Shown here in pieces: positions 11,475-61,430 of a stretch of 64,000 nt of DNA. The translations under genes were made by a program, and so were the position numbers. Position 1 is the first letter of the stretch. Each line of letters opens with the position of its first letter. The stretch is taken from positions 640 through 64,639 of the forward strand of contig JBLIMJ010000002.1 in NCBI GenBank assembly GCA_047638595.1. Reading direction: 5' to 3'. The DNA comes from Acidimicrobiales bacterium (GTDB lineage: Bacteria; Patescibacteriota; Minisyncoccia; Phycocordibacterales; UBA918). Below the pieces are notes generated by a model. The model was given only the letters and a program-made list of their open reading frames with translations, searched no databases and was not told the origin of the DNA.

Positions 11475-11579
11475 GTTGGGGGTATGTGAGTTACATACCC
11501 CTTTTTGTATTGTCTTTTTGACATTTACGGTGTTCGTCGCCAATCACTAAGTATATTTTTTTCGTCTTCGACTCCAAAC

Positions 11580-11734
11580 CTACTAAGTGTTCTCGACCCC
11601 ACCTCAACTGTCGCTAAAGCAACATGTTTCCGGCTTGGCAAGAGATCCGCAACTGCCTCAAGGCAGTTGTTAAAACAAAGAAAAACACTCCCTTTAAAGG
11701 GAGTGTTTTTCTTTGGTTTATCTCTTCCCACCCA
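11580..11734. repeat. tandem copy 1 of a 190-bp unit: degraded rplB 3-prime end (..IIIVSN-LGGKR*) plus three-stem structured bidirectional terminator
   Basis: P1 aagagat/atctctt, P2 caactgcc-tcaa-ggcagttg, P3 aaaacaaagaaaaac[ACTCCC-TTTAAA-GGGAGT]gtttttctttg. Confidence 0.75.
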
Positions 11735-11769
11735 AGTTACTAACTATAATTATTCGCTACCGCTCCAAT

Positions 11770-11925
11770 TCTAGTAAGTACTCGCGACCCCGACTCGTCT
11801 GTTGCTAAAGCAACATGACTCCGTCTTGGGAAGCGGTCACAACTGCCTCAAGGCAGTTGTTAAAACAAAGAAAAACCTCAGGCTTAAGCCTGGGGTTTTT
11901 CTTTGTTTTACCGCTTCCCACCCAT
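11770..11925. repeat. tandem copy 2 of the same unit, overlapping the true rplB stop
   Basis: P1 gaagcggt/accgcttc, identical P2, P3 apical stem CCTCAGGC-TTAA-GCCTGGGG: compensatory changes relative to copy 1. Confidence 0.75.
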
Positions 11926-12771
11926 CAGTGGTCCTGGCTTTCGTCTTGAAACAATCAATTTGTTTGAGTGTTTCTTCGGTGATCGAGTCTTTTGACCCTT
12001 TCCTGTTGGTCGACCTTGCTTTGTGCGAGATCGTTTGTGTCCTCGAGGAGATTTACCTTCACCACCTCCATGTGGGTGGTCAACTGCATTCTTCGCAGTA
12101 CCACGAGTCTTCGGTCGAAGTCCCATGTGTCGTGCGCGTCCTGCTTTACCGATTGATACCAGACGATGTTCTTCGTTTGATACTTCACCGACTGTTGCCC
12201 AACATGTTGAGAGTACCTTACGGATCTCAGTTGATGGCATTTTGAGTGTTGTGTATCCTGCATCGTGAGCGATCACTTCTGCGTGGATACCTGCAGCTCG
12301 AGCAATACGTGCTCCACCTTCAGGCTTCATCTCCACTGCATACACGAATGTACCAAGTGGGATGTTTGCGAGAGGAAGGCGGTTGGCTTTGGTTGGCTTT
12401 GCAGTTTCAGAAACTACAAATGTATCACCTTCCTTCATTCCTTGCTGTGAAAGAATGTACCGCCGTGCGCCGTCTGCATACAGAACTAAAGCAATGAAAC
12501 CAGTTCGGTACGGATCGTACTCGATAGTCTCTACTTTCGCAGGGACATCTTTCTTATCAAACTTAAAATCGATTTGTCGGTATTTTCGTTTATTACCAGC
12601 TCCTCGGTACCAGTTTGTGATACGTCCAGCGCTGTTACGTCCTCCTGTAGACTTCTTACCTTTTGTAAGTGCCTTTAGTGGTTTGCTTGCAGTTGAAGTA
12701 AGATACTTCTTGTACTCAATCACCGAGCCGTCACGACGGCCCGCTGATGTAGGTTTATATTTTTTTACCAT
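11908..12771 (-). CDS. rplB: 50S ribosomal protein L2 (start at MVKKYKPTSAGRR; ORF extends to 12834)
   Basis: KKYKPTSAGRR, VDHPHGGGEG motifs. Confidence 0.93.
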   Translation of the reverse strand: MVKKYKPTSAGRRDGSVIEYKKYLTSTASKPLKALTKGKKSTGGRNSAGRITNWYRGAGNKRKYRQIDFKFDKKDVPAKVETIEYDPYRTGFIALVLYADGARRYILSQQGMKEGDTFVVSETAKPTKANRLPLANIPLGTFVYAVEMKPEGGARIARAAGIHAEVIAHDAGYTTLKMPSTEIRKVLSTCWATVGEVSNEEHRLVSIGKAGRARHMGLRPKTRGTAKNAVDHPHGGGEGKSPRGHKRSRTKQGRPTGKGQKTRSPKKHSNKLIVSRRKPGPLMGGKR

Positions 12772-12840
12772 AATATCTGAGTGGTACCCAATAGTTAATT
12801 TCTGTGCTGTATGCTGCCACTGTATCAGTGACATTCATAC

Positions 12841-18364: not shown

Positions 18365-18585
18365 GGTCGAGTATGCATAATTTTAATGAATATGTAAAGC
18401 AAAAGACCAGCCAGTGCCGGTCCTTTGCTTTATTGGTCTTCAGTCATTAGGGTCAAGTTTCTAATTAGCTAATCGGTATATAGAGAGAGTAAATCATCAA
18501 CTTTTAATCCTTACTTTCACAAACGAATGATATCGTAAAAGTTTACTTTTATGATTCATGAGTGCAGGGAAAGAAAATTTATTTA

Positions 18586-18662
18586 CAGGATCTGTTCAGG
18601 TTATCGCTATTTTTACTAAGGTAAAAATAGCTGGTAACCTTCATTAAGACCTCACGAAGAAT
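18586..18662. repeat. copy A of 77-bp structured element (contains GCTATTTTTAC-TAAG-GTAAAAATAGC hairpin) downstream of fusA
   Basis: identical to 18694-18771. Confidence 0.8.
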
Positions 18663-18693
18663 ACTCCTCTGTTTCTTCGGTCTTTTAATCCTT
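18663..18693 (-). pseudogene. duplicated, frameshifted remnant of the fusA 3-prime end
   Basis: ctcctctgtttcttcggtcttttaatcc versus the true 3-prime end at 18807-18833 (cttctgtttcttcggtcttaatgcc). Confidence 0.6.
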
Positions 18694-18771
18694 ACAGGAT
18701 CTGTTCAGGTTATCGCTATTTTTACTAAGGTAAAAATAGCTGGTAACCTTCATTAAGACCTCACGAAGAAT
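18694..18771. repeat. copy B of the 77-bp element
   Basis: identical to copy A. Confidence 0.8.
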
Positions 18772-18806
18772 AAAAATAAGGCACCCTGCGGGGTGCCTTA
18801 TTTTTA
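18772..18806 (-). terminator. fusA intrinsic terminator AAGGCACCC-TGCG-GGGTGCCTT with flanking A/T runs (bidirectional)
   Basis: abuts fusA stop codon. Confidence 0.7.
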
Positions 18807-20993
18807 TTCTTCTGTTTCTTCGGTCTTAATGCCTCTCGCTGCTTTAATTTCGGCAGCGACATTTGGTGGTACTACTTCGTAGTGGTCAAATTCCATAGTC
18901 ATTGAGGCGCGTCCTTGTGTCATAGATCGTAGTGAGTTTGTGTATCCGAACATTTCAGAGAGTGGTACTTTCGCATTTACGATAGTCTTTCCTCCGAGTT
19001 CTTCAGAACCTTCAACCTGTCCACGCTTAGAAGAAATGTTTCCATTTACGTCTCCTAAGTATTCTTCTGGTGTTCGTACTTCAACCTTCATCACCGGTTC
19101 AAGGAGTACTGCGCTTGCACGCTTGGAAGCTTCTTTAAATGCATTGATTCCTGCAAGTTTGAAGGCGATTTCACTTGAGTCCACGTCATGGTATGAACCA
19201 TCGTAAAGCTCAATTGATACATCTTCCATCTTGTATCCAGCAACCTGCCCTCTCGCCATAGCTTCCTTACACCCTTTCATTACTGGAACAATGTATTCCT
19301 GTGGAATCACACCTCCCTTAATACTATTGATGAATTCGAAATGGTCTTCTCGCGTTACATTCTTTGCAAGCTTCTTTGGTTCACCATCCTCATCTAACTC
19401 TAGTGCTTCAAGCGGCTTGATTCGAATCTTCACGTGACCGTATTGCCCACGTCCACCTGACTGCTTGATGTACTTGTGTTCTGCTTCGGCCTCTCGTTGG
19501 ATTGTTTCTCGGTATGCTACTTGTGGCTTACCAATATCCGCTTCAACACCAAACTCTCGTTTCATTCGGTCAACAAGAATGTCGAGGTGAAGCTCACCCA
19601 TACCAGCAATAATAGTTTCAAGTGTTTCAGGATCAGAAGATACCTTAAATGTAGGGTCTTCATCAGAAAGTCGTTTAAGTGCCATTCCCATTTTTTCCTG
19701 GTCTTGCTTTGTTTTAGGCTCTACACGCACTGCAACCACTGGTTCAGGGAACGTAATAGTTTCAAGGAGCATCGGTGCATCCACATCACAAAGTGTATGT
19801 GAAGTTTTTACTTCTTTAATTCCTACCGCTGCAGCAATCTCTCCTGCGTACACTTCATCCACCTCTTCTCGTTTGTCTGCCATAAGTCGTACGATTCGTC
19901 CTACTCGTTCTTTGTTTCCAGTAGATGAGTTCATGATGTATGTCCCAGACTTCATCGTACCTGAATACACACGGAAGAATGCAAGTTGCCCCACAAACTT
20001 ATCGTCTTGTAGTTTGAACACAAGAGCGCTCAATGGTTCATCATCAGAAGGTTTCCGTGTGATGACAGTTTCTTCATCTTTGATGTCAGTTCCTTGAATA
20101 TCAGGAAGATCAAGTGGAGACGGGAGGTAGTCAACCACAGCATCAAGTACAAGTTGTACACCGATGTTCTGCAATGCAGTACCGGCCATAACAGGGAAGA
20201 TTTCATTTGCGAGCACCGCAACACGAAGTACTCGTTTCAAGTCTTCGTTTGAAGGTTCATTTCCTTCAAGAAAAGCTTCCATAAGCGCATCATCATGCTC
20301 CACAACTCGTTCAACAAGTTCCGCTCGACGTGCTACTGCTTCTGCAACAAACTCTTCAGGAATGTCCGCTTCAGTAACATCTGTTCCCATTTCTCCTGAA
20401 AAAGAGTACGATTTCATAGTGATAAGGTCTACCACTCCACGCATGTCATTTTCTGCCCCCATAGGAATCTGGATTCGGCACGCTTTCTTTGAAAGACGTT
20501 CTTCGATAGATTTAACCGCAGCATCGTAGTCAGCTCCCATTTTGTCCATCTTGTTTACAAAACAGATTCGTGGCACTGCAGCTTCGTCAGCATACCCCCA
20601 GTTTGTTTCAGTCTGTGGCTCTACACCAGCAGCACCATCAAATACCACAACCGCACCATCAAGTACACGCATAGAACGCTTTACCTCTGCAGTAAAGTCG
20701 ATGTGACCTGGAGTATCAATAATGTTAAAGGTGAACTTTTTATCGTTATTGTCTCGATCTGTTTCTAGTGTTTTTGACCAGTTACAAGAAATAGCAGCAG
20801 AAGTAATAGTAATACCACGCTCTCGTTCTTGGTCCATCCAGTCAGTGACTGTTTCACCGTCGTGAACTTCACCAATCTTATGACTCATTCCTGTATAGAA
20901 AAGAATTCGTTCAGATGTAGTTGTTTTACCAGCATCAACGTGCGCAACAATACCGAAGTTACGTAGTCGATCTAGTGGAAATGCTCGTGCCAT
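18804..20993 (-). CDS. fusA: elongation factor G
   Basis: 729 aa; AHVDAGKTTT, DTPGHIDF, NKMD. Confidence 0.97.
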   Translation of the reverse strand: MARAFPLDRLRNFGIVAHVDAGKTTTSERILFYTGMSHKIGEVHDGETVTDWMDQERERGITITSAAISCNWSKTLETDRDNNDKKFTFNIIDTPGHIDFTAEVKRSMRVLDGAVVVFDGAAGVEPQTETNWGYADEAAVPRICFVNKMDKMGADYDAAVKSIEERLSKKACRIQIPMGAENDMRGVVDLITMKSYSFSGEMGTDVTEADIPEEFVAEAVARRAELVERVVEHDDALMEAFLEGNEPSNEDLKRVLRVAVLANEIFPVMAGTALQNIGVQLVLDAVVDYLPSPLDLPDIQGTDIKDEETVITRKPSDDEPLSALVFKLQDDKFVGQLAFFRVYSGTMKSGTYIMNSSTGNKERVGRIVRLMADKREEVDEVYAGEIAAAVGIKEVKTSHTLCDVDAPMLLETITFPEPVVAVRVEPKTKQDQEKMGMALKRLSDEDPTFKVSSDPETLETIIAGMGELHLDILVDRMKREFGVEADIGKPQVAYRETIQREAEAEHKYIKQSGGRGQYGHVKIRIKPLEALELDEDGEPKKLAKNVTREDHFEFINSIKGGVIPQEYIVPVMKGCKEAMARGQVAGYKMEDVSIELYDGSYHDVDSSEIAFKLAGINAFKEASKRASAVLLEPVMKVEVRTPEEYLGDVNGNISSKRGQVEGSEELGGKTIVNAKVPLSEMFGYTNSLRSMTQGRASMTMEFDHYEVVPPNVAAEIKAARGIKTEETEE

Positions 20994-25924: not shown

Positions 25925-26524
25925 ATGGGAACAGATCACAGCAACAGACCAAACATTCTCGACAACTTGATGGATCGCAGGACAATTGTGCTTGCCGATA
26001 AGATTACAAGTAAATCAATCGGCGAGATCTGCAATCAAATTCTGACTTTGCAGACAATCTCAAATGATGAAATATTTCTAATCATCCAAAGTGGTGGTGG
26101 TAATACGCACTCAGCACTGACCATGTGCGATATGATGACACATCTCATCACTGCACCGATTACTGGTATTGCACTTGGTGATTGCCACTCGGCTGCAACT
26201 TTCATCATGTTACATTGCGATACACGTATCGCTTTACCGCATGCAAAATTCATTATCCATTCTGGCACAATTAGTGGCGTCTCAACCCGCATGGATGATG
26301 CCGCGGAAGAAGAAGTGAAACATCTTCTTCAAGACATCCAGAGAACCTCAAAGGAGGTTGTGAAGGTTTATATGGATAGGCTTGGCAAAAGTAAGGCCCA
26401 AGTCGAAGCAATCATTGCTCGAGGTGACCAATCCTTCGACAACGCCCTTTCTGCAGAAGATGCCATGAAAATTGGTCTTGTTCAAAAAATCCAGACGGGG
26501 AAACTTCCCATATTTGGTAAATGA
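25925..26524 (+). CDS. ClpP-family serine protease paralog (divergent; Ser/His/Asp positions appear conserved)
   Basis: aligns with canonical ClpP at 60571: GDCHSAATF versus [15 protein letters not shown] versus MIHQPS; RTIVLAD..I..QIL..L. Confidence 0.65.
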   Translation: MGTDHSNRPNILDNLMDRRTIVLADKITSKSIGEICNQILTLQTISNDEIFLIIQSGGGNTHSALTMCDMMTHLITAPITGIALGDCHSAATFIMLHCDTRIALPHAKFIIHSGTISGVSTRMDDAAEEEVKHLLQDIQRTSKEVVKVYMDRLGKSKAQVEAIIARGDQSFDNALSAEDAMKIGLVQKIQTGKLPIFGK

Positions 26525-33302: not shown

Positions 33303-33438
33303 TATCTACCCAGACTGTCTCACTCCACCCAAACAGCTTCCTCTTAAACCAATACCCTTCAGGTTGTCTTTAAGATACTTTATATAATTAGTGAACCATT
33401 TTTTCATATTTATAGTCTGTCGAAAATTAAAAGTTTTA

Positions 33439-33657
33439 CTGGGAACTGAGATTTTTTAAACGGGACAAGGTGAGCTGGACACAGCTCAAGACCTTTTGAG
33501 GTATTTTGAAGAATGAAAAATATCCAAAATATGTACAGTTTCTGTAAGAAAAAGGCCTAGAAATTTGTGAGTCGTACTTTGGGTACGGTGAACAAATTTT
33601 TGGACCTTTTAACGTCGTCTGGTGCAGAAAATGTCTGTTACCAATGGTAAATTTCAT
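33439..33657 (-). repeat. distal copy of rpsG-downstream module (includes degraded rpsG 3-prime end HW* and hairpin-in-hairpin with GAGTCGTAC..GTACGGTGAAC)
   Basis: aligns with 33763-33900 with a 90-bp insertion. Confidence 0.7.
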
Positions 33658-33762
33658 TTTGAAATGCACCCCAGGAGTATTTCCATTTTTATAGTCACCT
33701 CGTTCCTTAAAAATTGGGCAAATAAGAGGTAGCGAACAAAAAAAACATACAGTCAAATAGTA

Positions 33763-33900
33763 AGAATGCAACCTGGGAACTGAGATTTTCAAAAGCAGAC
33801 AAGGCAAAAGGCCCAAAAATTTGCGAGCCGTACATTGGTACGGTGAACAAATTTTTGGGCCTTTTAACGCCGTCTGGTGCAGAAAATGTCTGTTACCAGG
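33763..33900 (-). repeat. proximal copy of rpsG-downstream module overlapping true rpsG stop; contains perfect 18-bp outer stem AAAAGGCCCAAAAATTTG/CAAATTTTTGGGCCTTTT (33806-33865) with inner CCGTAC-ATTG-GTACGG
   Basis: read from sequence. Confidence 0.7.
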
Positions 33901-34366
33901 CGAAGTGGGCAAATGCTCGGTTAGCCTCTGCCATCTTGTGCGTATCCTCCTTCTTCTTCACTGCAGCTCCTTCTTCTTTAGCTGCAAGCATGAGTTCTGA
34001 AGCGAGTGCCTTGAACATTGGTACGCCCTTCTGACTTCGAGAAGCCTTGATGAGTGCACGTAGTGCAAGTGCGAGTCGTCGTTCGAGACGAACTTCGCGA
34101 GGTACTTGGTAGTTTGCACCACCAACACGTCGTGACCGTACTTCCATCTGCGGACCAGCGTTTCGAACTGCTGTATCAAAGATTTCAATTGGATCACCAC
34201 CACCTTCTTTTGCATCCTTTATTACATCGAATGCTCCATACACGATTTTTCGTGCAGTTTCTTTTTGACCGTTAAGCATCACGTAGTTGATGAGTCGTTC
34301 AACATCTACTGAACCAAACTTCATGTCTGGCTTGACGATTGGTCGTTTCTTTATTGGTCGTCGCAT
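33893..34366 (-). CDS. rpsG: 30S ribosomal protein S7
   Basis: [14 protein letters not shown].. Confidence 0.93.
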
Positions 34367-36162: not shown

Positions 36163-36198
36163 ACCTCTAAAATCAAAGTATCTACTTTGGCACAGAGT

Positions 36199-36240
36199 AA
36201 AAAACTCTCATCTTACCTGCAGGTAAGATGAGAGTTTTTT
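36199..36240 (+). terminator. 19-bp perfect stem AAAAAACTCTCATCTTACC-TGCA-GGTAAGATGAGAGTTTTTT
   Basis: read from sequence. Confidence 0.7.
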
Positions 36241-36274
36241 CATTATGGAATAATTCTGATGTAACATGCTGAAT

Positions 36275-43141: not shown

Positions 43142-43645
43142 TTACACGATGGATACGACGTTTGGTTTTACTACTTTAAGATAGTCTTCCGACTTCATCG
43201 CTATGGAACAACTCCGATCACCTGCATTAAATATTATCTCCTGATTTTCTAGAAGAGTTTTATCAACATATACTTCCAAACCAAATATATTTCCAAAAGG
43301 TGGAACACCTCCTGGTTGCACACCATCTGTAACTCTTTCAACTTCCTCAGGTAATGCGAAACGAATATCTGTAGCATGAAGAGCATGTCGTGCCTTTTTT
43401 GGGTCAAACTTTGCATCCCCTGGGACCACAATCTGAACAAATTGTTTTTGTTCTTCTTTGGGAACCTCCTTCTTTTTTATGCGTAAAATGAGTGCTTTGG
43501 CTCCTTGTGAGATAGAGTACTCAGGGCGTAGTGAGGCCGCCTCTTCACTAGTACGCACTGGGTCATGCTCAAAGCACTTATACTCCAGACTTGACTGGGT
43601 AAGTAGATCCTTGATTTGTTGTACTACGGGATGATAGCTAGACAT
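43142..43645 (-). CDS. YbaK/ProX-type aminoacyl-tRNA deacylase (trans-editing domain protein)
   Basis: FEHDPVRTSEEAA..GAKALIL pattern. Confidence 0.65.
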   Translation of the reverse strand: MSSYHPVVQQIKDLLTQSSLEYKCFEHDPVRTSEEAASLRPEYSISQGAKALILRIKKKEVPKEEQKQFVQIVVPGDAKFDPKKARHALHATDIRFALPEEVERVTDGVQPGGVPPFGNIFGLEVYVDKTLLENQEIIFNAGDRSCSIAMKSEDYLKVVKPNVVSIV

Positions 43646-43895
43646 ACAGGTGCTTTTGCTTCTTACAGTAGCTGTTCAGGTTATCAATATTTCTTTTCGG
43701 TACCTCAAGAAATATCTGGTCACCTCTTGTGACAGTCCCCCGGACTGTCTCACCTTGTGCGAGGGAGTATTCGGAACGTAATGCTGCTGCTTCCTCACTG
43801 ATACGGACTGCTTCATGTTCAAAGCATTGATAGTGACAATTCGCACTATCTAAAAGTTGCTTAATTTTCTGTACTGTTTGATTATACTCAGACAT
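43638..43895 (-). pseudogene. truncated/frameshifted tandem paralog of the YbaK-like gene (first 45 aa conserved, then frameshift)
   Basis: MSEYNQTVQKIKQLLDSANCHYQCFEHEAVRISEEAAALRSEYSLAQG versus MSSYHPVVQQIKDLLTQSSLEYKCFEHDPVRTSEEAASLRPEYSISQG; alternative frame gives RYFLRYRKE versus LILRIKKKE. Confidence 0.55.
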
Positions 43896-59772: not shown

Positions 59773-59795
59773 GCCTTCTCGCAGAGAGACAATCA

Positions 59796-59865
59796 AAACC
59801 CACTATCACATATGTTAGTGGGTTTTGTTTATGTATCAAAAAAGCCCGGCGTGCAGCCGGGCTTT
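59796..59865 (+). terminator. two consecutive hairpins after tig (AAAACCCACTA..TAGTGGGTTTT; AGCCCGGC-GTGCA-GCCGGGCT)
   Basis: read from sequence. Confidence 0.65.
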
Positions 59866-60183
59866 CCGTATTATTATGTGGCTTGAAGAGCACTATTAAC
59901 TGCAAATGAAAGAGATAAAACAAGACCGACAATAGACCTCCTCAACCGTCCATCATCCTTTACCAACATCCACAAGCGTTTCGTGATAGTTGCATGTAAA
60001 TACTGAAGTGGCGGATGTTGCATTACTTTTTCATGATGAGTAACCACTCGTAAGTATACAAGCACTGCCGCAAACACGCTTAGGATTGTAAAATTCCACA
60101 TTTGCCTATCCTCCAAAATGTATATATCCAAAAGCACTGTACACTTCATGAGTACGTAAGTAAAGATGACTTCCTTTTTTTAA

Positions 60184-60219
60184 TCTATCTTCATATCATT
60201 AATGATATGAAGATAGATA
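60184..60219. promoter_or_regulatory. perfect 16-bp-arm palindrome ATCTATCTTCATATCA-TTAA-TGATATGAAGATAGAT, 70 bp upstream of a small ORF (operator candidate)
   Basis: read from sequence. Confidence 0.45.
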
Positions 60220-60290
60220 CGTTTGTCGGTTGACAGAAAATTAATATATATATCATAAAAATATCCAAAATATTTCTGAAAGGAAAATGA

Positions 60291-60440
60291 TATGTTTAGG
60301 ATTAACCTGCAGAAACCTATCTGCATCGAAGGTGACGGTGGTACTGCAATAATTTCCAGAACCGGTTGCATCACTGACGGAGCGCCGGTGCATAAACCTG
60401 AAGGTGACGGCATCAACAATTTGGTCGACACCACAATTTA
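60291..60440 (+). CDS. small ORF, 49 aa (MFRINLQKPICIEGDGGTAIISRTGCITDGAPVHKPEGDGINNLVDTTI), below ORF-track cutoff
   Basis: AGGAAA RBS 7 nt upstream; own terminator at 60463-60492. Confidence 0.35.
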
Positions 60441-60462
60441 GGATCATCATCCTGATCCGACC

Positions 60463-60492
60463 ACGACGCTTCTTACTTGAAGCGTCGTTTTT
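60463..60492 (+). terminator. ACGACGCTTC-TTACTT-GAAGCGTCGT plus TTTTTC
   Basis: read from sequence. Confidence 0.65.
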
Positions 60493-60570
60493 CATTTCCA
60501 ACCCGCCCACTTTCTGGTACAGTACCACCATACTGATACGAAATATTAATTGAAATTATTGAAACCTTAT

Positions 60571-61170
60571 ATGAATGAACATACACAAGAAACGGGACAG
60601 TTGGTCCCAATGGTGATTGAAAAAACTCCTGGTGGAGAACGGGCGTTTGATATTTACTCACGGCTTTTAAAAGAAAGGATTATCTTTATTACTGGTGGTA
60701 TAGAAGACCATATGGCCAATCTAGTAGTAGCACAACTTCTATTCCTCGAAGCAGAAGATCCTAAGAAAGACATCTTCATATATGTAAACTCTCCTGGAGG
60801 AAGTGTGACTGCTGGACTGTCTATTATAGACACAATGAACCACATTAAGCCTGACATCGCCACTGTGTGTGTAGGGATGGCAGCGTCAATGGGATCACTC
60901 ATTCTTTCACAGGGAACCAAAGGTAAACGGGCAGTACTGCCAAACGCAGAAGTAATGATTCATCAGCCCAGTGGTGGTGCATACGGACAAGCTTCCGATA
61001 TCGATATAACTGCAAAGCACATCCTAAAGACTCGAGACCGTCTGAATAAAATGCTTGCAAAAGCGACAGGAAAACCACTTGCTCAGGTTGAAAAAGACGT
61101 AGACCGAGATTTCTTCATGGATGCACAAGAAGCAAAAAAATATGGCATCATTGATTCAATTTATAAATAA
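60571..61170 (+). CDS. clpP: ATP-dependent Clp protease proteolytic subunit (ATG at MNEHT; ORF track start is TTG)
   Basis: [11 protein letters not shown] Ser, MIHQPSGG His; 199 aa. Confidence 0.92.
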
Positions 61171-61284
61171 ATTAATCAATGATGAGCCGGAGCGTGAAAA
61201 GTGACTCAATGTCACTTTGCAAGACTCATTGAGACCTTAGTCCAATGAGTGGACAGTTCCTGTAAGGAATTAGAAACCTGACGC
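61171..61284. mobile_element. 115-bp insert-like structured segment between the clpP stop and a duplicated copy of the clpP 3-prime end
   Basis: flanked by catcattgattcaatttataaataa (clpP end, 61144-61170) and gctcattgattcaatttataaatag (61285-61309); internal CAATGA/TCATTG inverted repeats and GTGAC-TCAAT-GTCAC hairpin. Confidence 0.45.
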
Positions 61285-61311
61285 TCATTGATTCAATTTA
61301 TAAATAGAGTT

Positions 61312-61338
61312 AAAAGCGCACCCGTAGGGTGCGCTTTT
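61312..61338 (+). terminator. AAAAGCGCACCC-GTA-GGGTGCGCTTTT
   Basis: read from sequence. Confidence 0.7.
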
Positions 61339-61430
61339 ATCGACAATACCTACTAATTCTGCTATGTTTTGTAGTATCGGTAAACTACAGAGATGTCAGA
61401 AACGACTGATTATTAATTTATACATACCCT

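Follow-up and report, generated by a model that had tools for sequence, protein, structure and literature searches.

A structured insert at the clpP stop codon and a gene-end-associated repeat family of candidate phyla radiation bacteria

This work concerns a 64,000-nucleotide (nt) stretch of contig JBLIMJ010000002.1 (64 kb; the whole of it is referred to here as the window), in which the clpP gene is followed by a structured insert of 115 nt lying between two copies of the gene's last 22 bp. The insert is very probably a member of a multi-copy, noncoding, mobile repeat family of candidate phyla radiation (CPR) bacteria (Paceibacteria/Kaiserbacteria-like). As the best overall explanation we favor, with some reserve, a mobile folded CPR module that integrated into the last 22 bp of clpP. 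It is likely that this integration was of a kind that rebuilds the gene end, and we offer tentatively a route in which the module, as folded single-stranded DNA (ssDNA), exchanges a single strand with its target. The observations that carry this reading are the membership of the insert in the family, the conserved fold of the family, the presence of the insert in some relatives and its absence from others, the recurrence of one arrangement of gene-end copies at unrelated targets, the occurrence of tandem arrays, and the lack of a linked enzyme gene.

The insert at the 3' end of clpP

The clpP gene is intact. Its 3' sequence, ..ATCATTGATTCAATTTATAAATAA (in a longer form, ..GGCATCATTGATTCAATTTATAAATAA), encodes IIDSIYK and a stop codon; the protein is unaltered by the insert, and its C terminus resembles those of relatives. 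An identical protein with a Pfam CLP_protease domain is encoded on Logan contig L012, and because the window ClpP is 82 to 89% identical to proteins from metagenome-assembled genomes (MAGs) of the Kaiserbacteria/Paceibacteria type, the host organism is, as judged from sequence, a CPR member. A perfect 22-nt direct repeat (TCATTGATTCAATTTATAAATA) occupies positions 61148 to 61169 and 61285 to 61306, with 137 nt from start to start and 115 nt between the copies. Chance would give 0.02 matches to this sequence in the whole window, and two matches occurred in 0 of 100 shuffles. The initial annotation of this DNA had described a 115-bp structured insert at the clpP stop codon, and both its coordinates and its sequence are as described. 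The accompanying duplication, given there as the last 25 bp of the gene, is real but comprises 22 identical bases, after which the copies diverge (TAA versus TAG). The insert and its surroundings contain the following features (S, gene end; S', inverted copy of it; S2, second direct copy).

60571 to 61170, + strand: clpP coding sequence, 199 amino acids, intact, ending IIDSIYK-TAA (from the list of open reading frames [ORFs])
61148 to 61169, + strand: S, repeat copy 1, the last 7 codons of clpP
61169 to 61184, + strand: S', inverted gene-end copy AAATTAATCAATGATG (from inverted repeats and the minimum free energy fold)
61185 to 61195, + strand: leader motif GAGCCGGAGCG, common to the clpP-linked copies L013, L021, and L134 and to module type M2
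61192 to 61273, + strand: three-hairpin core, matched by model R1 at 70.5 bits, with the order GUGA, P1, GCAAG, P2, GGACA, P3
61198 to 61218, within the core: P1, AAAGTGAC-TCAAT-GTCACTTT, followed by GCAAG at 61219 to 61223
61224 to 61250, within the core: P2, ACTCATTG..CAATGAGT, followed by GGACA at 61251 to 61255
61256 to 61270, within the core: P3, GTTCCT-GTA-AGGAAT
61271 to 61284, + strand: element tail TAGAAACCTGAC(GC), constant in the near-identical copy L127:916-997
61285 to 61306, + strand: S2, repeat copy 2 (LIDSIYK-TAG, outside any gene)
61311 to 61339, + strand: intrinsic-terminator hairpin of clpP, 13 bp, G+C-rich, now 137 nt farther from the stop codon

The order is clpP..S-S'-core-S2-terminator, and the integrated unit measures 137 nt. 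As RNA, the 115-nt insert folds with a z-score of -7.4; as ssDNA, the 137-nt unit forms four hairpins (z = -6.9). The internal inverted repeats and the GTGAC-TCAAT-GTCAC hairpin to which the initial annotation drew attention are real, and the three hairpins P1 to P3 were found. S' at clpP can pair either with positions 61146 to 61161, across the stop codon, or with repeat copy 2 (AATCAATGA with TCATTGATT), and ACGCTC of the tail pairs with GAGCGT at positions 61190 to 61195. In the clpP copy, both the leader (CGGAGCG) and the tail (TTAGAAACCTGAC) are those of another module type (M2, described below), so that the insert is a composite in which an M2-type leader and tail surround an R1 core. 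At locus L127, core plus tail are near-identical to those of the clpP copy.

The recurring gene end does precede the real terminator, as had been proposed: the terminator hairpin starts 4 nt after repeat copy 2. S2 is probably the displaced original end of clpP, because its layout of stop codon, 4 nt, and terminator matches the empty sites of L015 and L017. The sole hairpin flagged as terminator-like at clpP lies downstream of the second repeat, so that the 3' untranslated region (UTR) of the clpP mRNA probably includes the structured 137-nt unit. A promoter-like site for rny follows the terminator (61340 to 61368). Both junctions of the insert were found in an independent Logan assembly (run SRR28416755), in which contig L012 carries the left junction and stops inside the insert at ..GTCACTTTGCAAG, and contig L213 begins at AGTGGACAGTTCC.. 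and continues with repeat 2, the terminator, and rny.

Relatives differ in whether the clpP site is occupied. In L015, L016, and L017, the site is empty and consists of the stop codon, a plain terminator, and rny, yet L016 has a family copy elsewhere on the same contig. In L021 and L134, the site is filled on the same plan as in the window: each locus has its own gene end (e.g., CCTCATTGATGAGG) and an inverted copy of that end (CCTCATCAATGAGG), after which come a leader with ..CGGAGCG.., structured modules, and a variably decayed direct copy. L013 holds only a remnant at this site, ATCGATGATGAGGCGGAGCG.., and the S:S' hairpin across the clpP stop codon is preserved in the window, L021, and L134. 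The reading of the initial annotation would have been contradicted by a segment without other copies in an arrangement ancestral in the relatives; instead, further copies and empty clpP sites were found.

Other features of the clpP neighborhood were also recorded. The tig-clpP spacer (59773 to 60570) is unusually long (~800 nt) and contains terminator-like hairpins, a long A+T-rich palindrome (60180 to 60215), two occurrences of GAAGGTGACGG, and a 49-amino-acid ORF rich in Gly, Asp, and Cys (60292 to 60441). A second, divergent ClpP-family gene (25925 to 26524; Pfam CLP_protease, E = 2.8e-26) is distant from tig-clpP-rny, and clpX was not seen beside either clpP copy of the window. An AbrB-like gene to which the initial annotation had extended its reasoning was not located among the ORFs scanned.

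Copies of the module and their conserved fold

A 17-nt identity to the clpP insert led to a second structured insert, in the rplF/rplR spacer, and then to more. The window copies have in common GUGAG, P1, GCAAGA, P2, G(U/A)ACAG, and P3 with a GUA loop. The covariance model R1 was built from a MAFFT alignment of five window copies, and its search of the 64-kb window retrieved the 7 copies given below (A to F plus C2), or one structured module per ~9 kb; the identities of window genes were taken from Pfam.

61192 to 61273, + strand: copy A, at clpP, 70.5 bits
4413 to 4502, - strand: copy B, in the rplF/rplR spacer, 98.9 bits, closed by an imperfect inverted repeat of ~45 nt
18684 to 18766 and 18575 to 18657, - strand: copies C and C2, in tandem after fusA, 51.9 and 35.8 bits
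33468 to 33555, + strand: copy D, 73.8 bits, antisense, in the second copy of a duplicated rpsG 3' region
1210 to 1302, + strand: copy E, 90.7 bits, antisense, downstream of secY
43655 to 43755, - strand: copy F, 87 bits, between a diverged YbaK-like 5' duplicate and the complete YbaK-like gene

Both orientations relative to genes occur among these copies. At fusA, the 3' end of the gene is duplicated (18805 to 18827 and 18662 to 18684), and an inverted copy is present as well. At rpsG, the window itself contains an empty and a filled site. The last 6 nt of rpsG and ~120 nt downstream are duplicated within positions 33439 to 33898 (62 nt at 97% and 32 nt at 84% identity), with ~129 nt of unique sequence between the duplicates; the first is the empty site and the second holds the antisense core D. 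With slashes marking the joints, the empty site reads ..ACAAGG/C/AAAAGGCC and the filled site reads ..ACAAGG/TGAGC..CTGTAAG/AAAAAGGCC. Because of this pair, the ~86-nt core itself is regarded as a discrete insertion unit, and core D has no long duplication at its own insertion point. A 158-amino-acid ORF without a Pfam match (33436 to 33912, - strand) spans the whole duplicated region and is probably spurious.

The further copies that the initial annotation had suggested looking for are plentiful outside the window. In related MAGs of the Kaiserbacteria/Paceibacteria type, ~7 R1 copies were found, in several genomes. A contig scan with exact motifs yielded at least 120 metagenome loci; the family counts given from here on cover the window and these loci, in which R1 has at least 146 matches plus 27.

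In the seed consensus fold, derived from the five-copy MAFFT alignment, compensatory changes are present in 17 of 30 pairs. For 143 distinct sequences in an alignment that was fitted to the model, and is thus biased toward structure, both-sided changes are present in 29 of 30 pairs, and 94.2% of cells pair, versus 72% in shuffled controls and 36 to 49% in slid controls. Since G-U pairs exceed A-C pairs in the family alignment (134 versus 33), the conserved fold belongs to the modeled strand, as RNA or as ssDNA.

Rfam 15 gave no match at gathering score in the whole 64-kb window, and permissive Rfam searches with the clpP copy, copies B and E, and four tRNA-linked loci returned chance-level matches only, the tRNAs themselves excepted. 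A number of resemblances seen by eye were considered and rejected. Hammerhead-like (UGAUGAG..GAAA), C/D-box-like (AUGAUGA..CUGA), and hairpin-ribozyme-like (ACAGUCCUGU) motifs were dismissed because other pairings covary and the Rfam models of these classes give no match, and the same reasons disposed of a 5'-splice-site-like AG/GUGAG and a sarcin-ricin-like GGAGCG. Weak R1 matches at 60154 to 60240 and 36176 to 36258 turned out to be plain palindromes and not family members. A phage origin was discarded, as the 11 motif matches in IMG/VR are at chance level by a rough estimate and R1 recognizes none of them. As a separate observation, no ribosomal-protein leader in the whole window reaches the Rfam gathering score, despite the presence of most of the S10/spc/str operons, and no tRNA gene was found in the 64-kb window.

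Modules other than R1 cores are also present. Directly after rplB (11908 to 12834), two tandem units of the second module type, M2, occupy positions 11480 to 11920 (- strand) and read ..GACGGAGUCAUG..GGGGUCGCGAGUACUUACUAGAAUUGGAGCG..UAUAGUUAGUAACUUG. Upstream of each unit lie two terminator-like hairpins and the rplB end (GGGAAGCGGTAA) in inverted form (GACCGCTTCCC); downstream there is a direct copy that has degenerated (GGGAAGAGATAA), and the repeats comprise 76 nt at 78% identity and 37 nt at 100%. M2 also occurs in L094, L141, L107, and L140, and an R1 core is sometimes nested inside it. Copy E is flanked (1140 to 1210 and 1360 to 1425, + strand) by the motif pair GAUACGAGG(U/C)G(U/G)GCAAG .. 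(G)CCGUACU(U/G)AG..UACGG, which may constitute a third module type. A related sequence, GUGAGUCGUACUUUGGGUACGGUGA, adjoins copy D (33560 to 33590), and similar sequences are found in L023 between clpP and rny. Lastly, the tail motif AATTAGAAACTTGACC, as in the clpP copy and L127, recurs at 18440 to 18475 (- strand), ~110 nt downstream of the truncated fusA copy C2, which suggests a further degraded module.

Gene-end layout, insertion, and competing explanations

The arrangement seen at clpP is most regular at tRNA genes. A same-strand tRNA lies no more than 200 nt upstream of 42 of 153 copies, and 17 isotypes are represented. The order in these copies is constant: S, a hairpin H (usually a terminator), S', AAGG, P2, UGUACUG, P3, and S. 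Here, S extends from the T-loop to the 3' end of the tRNA, which itself is kept intact, and S' is the reverse complement of S, usually split by P1 at the boundary between acceptor and T stem. The second S measures 20 to 28 nt and is mostly perfect (59/60 nt if the terminator is included). The same layout is found at fusA, both in the window and, at the same codons, as a double array in L104; at rplB in the window, where the core is of another type; and, in three species, at clpP. These targets (clpP, fusA, rplB, and many tRNAs) have no obvious common sequence, and the inverted arms, being reverse complements of the local gene end, differ at every locus. Across the family, the gene-end duplication ranges from 14 to 59 nt and starts at defined gene positions. 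A flanking direct repeat is present in 50 of 125 copies and a closing inverted repeat in 38 of 125, with 0 in shuffled controls. L167, L140, and L044 contain tandem arrays with the structure (S-H-S'-core)n-S, and copies are also nested within one another.

S' retains 70 to 82% of a perfect complement, and S2 is mostly perfect. S' is thus far more degenerate than S2, a pattern that fits an S' carried by the element and an S2 made anew at each integration. Three other readings of S' were tried. Selection on S:S' pairing was rejected on the lack of a wobble bias among S' mismatches (12 versus 11). A tRNA-like reading of S'..S was rejected because S' holds the complement of the T-loop and not a copy of it. 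The notion that S' is templated from the target at each insertion, of which L126 was first taken as proof, is weakened by the greater degeneracy of S' and by two units of the L167 array that have identical S' deviations.

No enzyme gene accompanies the modules, which are 90 to 250 nt long and contain no ORF. The 519 ORFs located within 2.5 kb of copies were clustered and gave housekeeping families only (EF-G, NusB, RNase Y, and RNase III). A recurrent transposase, integrase, or reverse transcriptase was not found near ~150 copies, and the scanned window ORFs, among which are ComEC, RecJ, and type IV pilus genes, contain none; Cas1 was not found either.

In the folded-ssDNA route that we put forward, tentatively, as the likeliest mechanism, the mobile form would be a small single-stranded circle. 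S and S' would pair within the circle to form a stem imitating the double-stranded chromosomal target, and the core would be its loop. One strand would be exchanged with the chromosomal S, and replication would complete the insertion. The product would have the order S-(rest of circle)-S'-loop-S and would regenerate the target, allowing further insertions and tandem arrays. At clpP, the left S would complete the reading frame, and the right S2 would stay with the old terminator. The empty clpP site would read ..TATAAATA(A/G)AGTTAAAAGCGC, and a circular or tandem form would join the tail and S to S', as ..GAAACCTGACGCTCATTGATTCAATTTATAAATAAATTAATCAATGATGAGCC... Because the module has no protein-coding content, the enzyme would act in trans. 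Such a route would account for the intact gene, the arrays, a fresh S2 beside an old and imperfect S', and the conservation of a fold on one strand.

A number of points weigh against this route. No circular junction, excision product, or enzyme was seen, and since the targets have no obvious sequence in common, a classical sequence-specific recombinase would be insufficient. A conserved fold with G-U pairs is equally compatible with RNA, and the large covariation count derives from the structure-biased alignment mentioned above. The origin of new S/S' pairs is a matter that the route does not explain. L126 has identical cores with different S' beside two different tRNAs, and L167 has two array units with the same hairpin and S' and with different cores; both need extra assumptions, e.g., gene conversion or core swapping. 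Some copies have no S' at all: a partial 5' gene copy simply flanks F, L183, L148, and L164, and copies B and E and the D core have no flanking repeat, so that there is probably more than one insertion route.

Copies that follow a partial 5' copy of the downstream gene illustrate such other modes. Beside copy F, at positions 43745 to 43895 (- strand), the 5' UTR and initial 48 codons of the YbaK/tRNA_edit gene (43142 to 43645) are present a second time, in diverged form. By eye, this 48-codon duplicate is ~65% identical to the resident gene; its conserved residues are retained, and it reads into element F as an 85-amino-acid ORF. It resembles a piece of a foreign allele more than a local copy in decay. 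In L183, the copy is preceded by the first ~22 codons of a gene whose N terminus, read by eye, we take to be that of a candidate DNA-3-methyladenine glycosylase (Tag). In L148, L159, L164, L113, and L102, the 5' parts of tRNAs are broken in the anticodon or D loop, and in L164 a compensatory stem change distinguishes the partial tRNA from the full one, as would be expected of a foreign allele. L148 (LLBY010387604.1, ~1080 to 1530) contains a single tRNA-Arg(CCT) gene enclosed by three modules: the first is of the 5' type, behind a partial tRNA (positions 1 to 33); the second is of the 3' type, with S' and S2; and the third is an antisense core within a further copy of the tRNA 3' end. Because diverged, apparently foreign fragments adjoin resident genes (the YbaK-like gene here and, elsewhere, the Tag-like candidate and tRNA-Arg), the data suggest that the modules mediate or mark allele exchange between lineages.

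Among the competing explanations, the one that survives best, although still unlikely, requires no dedicated enzyme. During replication, the nascent strand would fold back at a gene-end palindrome or terminator and copy S into S', jump by microhomology onto a core copy elsewhere, and rejoin upstream so that S is duplicated, as in a miniature duplication-inverted triplication-duplication (DUP-TRP/INV-DUP) event. In keeping with such template switching, S' always extends a natural gene-end palindrome or hairpin (ATTTATAAAT at clpP; the terminator at fusA, rplB, and tRNAs), and no enzyme gene was found. The junctions also have microhomology, in the form of the palindromic T-loop TTCGAA on both sides of the tRNA-type core, GATTAAAGA at fusA in two lineages, and AAGG/TGAG-type joints at 5' junctions. 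However, a three-part product that arises with the same polarity dozens of times at 17 tRNA isotypes points to a systematic process and not to rare accidents. Neither an S' far more degenerate than S2 nor its usual splitting by P1 at a fixed place is expected from a single copying event, and long-term conservation of the core fold requires selection on the element itself.

We regard as somewhat less probable still the idea that the unit is a cis-acting RNA switch in the 3' UTR of clpP and behind tRNAs. S' would have two partners: pairing with S would hide the stop codon or the 3' half of the tRNA, and pairing with the decoy S2 would close the core. The core would sense a protein or ligand and thereby affect mRNA or tRNA stability, processing, or termination. 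Both alternative pairings are available at clpP, the conserved core fold is that of one strand and includes G-U pairs, copies A, B, C, and F have the same orientation as their genes, and the window, L021, and L134 all retain the hairpin over the clpP stop codon. Copies D and E, however, are antisense to their neighbors, and S and S' of most tRNA copies are separated by an intrinsic terminator, so that a transcript would seldom contain both. S' and S2 also decay freely, being kept in only 38 and 50 of 125 copies, respectively, without wobble bias; close relatives have no element at clpP; and arrays and nested copies are not what a switch would lead one to expect.

That the insert is an ordinary miniature inverted-repeat transposable element (MITE), with terminal inverted repeats (TIRs), a target-site duplication (TSD), and a DDE transposase encoded elsewhere, is very improbable. 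The family is indeed multi-copy, small, and noncoding, and an inverted and a direct repeat bracket the element. The inverted arms are locus-specific gene-end copies, however, and not constant element ends; the direct repeats vary from 14 to 59 nt and have starts fixed in the target gene; no related autonomous insertion sequence was seen; and selection acts on intrastrand pairing, not on end sequences. The initial annotation had suggested a small non-autonomous element with a long target duplication, or else a site-specific-recombination footprint. A small non-autonomous element is supported by the multiple copies and empty sites, but the duplication is not a TSD of the fixed length that a transposase makes, and an inverted gene-end copy is present too. 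Compared with a MITE and its TSD, integration that is site-specific or based on homology and that restores the gene end is the better fit.

An assembly artifact, in which strain variants were joined into a chimera and the clpP end was thereby duplicated, can be all but set aside. The window does come from a metagenome-type assembly, and the Logan contigs break off within the element; however, the independent Logan assembly reproduces both junctions, and the layout recurs in many unrelated assemblies and at many genes.

An extension of the favored reading, in which the modules are homology-guided integrative minicircles, is doubtful. A trans-acting factor would recognize only the three-hairpin core, and the gene-end stem would be a built-in DNA guide to the matching duplex. 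If true, this would amount to programmable insertion, free of protein genes, into the ends of essential genes without damage, and it would explain the partial foreign-allele copies beside resident CPR genes.

Significance and relation to known systems

CPR bacteria have tiny genomes and few recognized mobile elements. Modules of the present family lie in or beside the most essential genes (ribosomal protein operons, fusA, secY, and clpP and, in relatives, tRNAs of 17 isotypes), and the family explains why CPR genomes contain long "intergenic" spacers, spurious ORFs, and partially duplicated genes. It is a new structured nucleic-acid family with very strong covariation support and no Rfam match, and its layout is indicative of integration in which an element-carried copy restores the target gene end, with no linked enzyme gene.

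Two classes of known element were rejected. The variable and template repeats (VR/TR) of a diversity-generating retroelement do not apply, as the repeats here are identical and no reverse transcriptase is among the scanned window ORFs. Against a group I or group II intron, there is no Rfam intron match and clpP is complete upstream of the insert; group II introns have been reported as absent from Patescibacteria (PMC13011429).

MITEs, Correia elements, Rickettsia palindromic elements (RPE), repetitive extragenic palindromes and bacterial interspersed mosaic elements (REP/BIME), and mitochondrial double-hairpin elements are likewise small, multi-copy, hairpin-forming, noncoding, and intergenic, sometimes at gene ends. 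Unlike the present family, MITEs have constant TIRs and fixed-length TSDs, and REPs are single hairpins linked to REP-associated tyrosine transposases (RAYTs); none of these elements makes its outer stem from the neighboring gene. Casposons prefer the 3' ends of tRNA and EF-2/EF-G genes and make unusually long duplications, and the fusA and tRNA targets found here are reminiscent of them. Casposons, however, have fixed TSDs of 14 to 15 bp and constant TIRs and encode Cas1 and a polymerase, whereas repeat length here varies between 14 and 59 nt and Cas1 was not found. Islands and prophages with tRNA genes as their targets, as Williams reportedly set out in 2002, use T-loop and anticodon-loop sublocations, supply a replacement gene end, and leave the displaced copy at the far side. 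The repeats here, from the T-loop to the tRNA 3' end with the gene intact, are similar; but those elements are kilobases long and have their own tyrosine integrase, whereas the present modules have no ORF, possess an additional S', and also occupy the ends of protein genes.

The attC sites of integrons are recognized as folded single strands, with structure conserved over sequence and with bulges on one strand, and they are non-autonomous and mobilized in trans. The family resembles them in conserving structure over sequence and differs in that its stems are copies of host gene ends. Near the copies, neither an integron integrase nor attI was found, and the scanned window ORFs include no integrase; no integron cassette array was noted in the loci read, although no search was aimed at arrays; and no GTTRRRY core site stands out by eye around the clpP copy, the family not having been systematically screened for one.

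A close parallel in layout is to integrative mobile elements exploiting Xer (IMEX) of the CTXphi type. In the (+) strand of CTXphi, two inverted dif-like sites ~90 nt apart form a forked hairpin whose stem imitates the duplex target, and the integrated state has three site copies (direct, inverted, direct) that regenerate a usable target and permit tandem arrays (PMC3089051). The S-H-S'-core-S order, the loop of ~90 to 115 nt, and the arrays described here are alike. The element here, by contrast, is gene-free and ~140 to 250 nt long, its loop is a conserved three-hairpin structure, and its targets are many gene and tRNA 3' ends without a common sequence instead of dif. We know of no Xer dependence here.

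Full-text literature searches turned up no description of such elements, and none is in Rfam 15; gene-free modules of 140 to 250 nt that take their outer stem from the neighboring gene end, at many essential CPR genes, are apparently undescribed. Their parts have precedents in tRNA-end integration with gene restoration, in folded single-strand attachment sites, and in structured miniature repeats. Should the folded single-strand route prove true, the principle known from CTXphi and attC would be extended from one fixed site to arbitrary gene ends.

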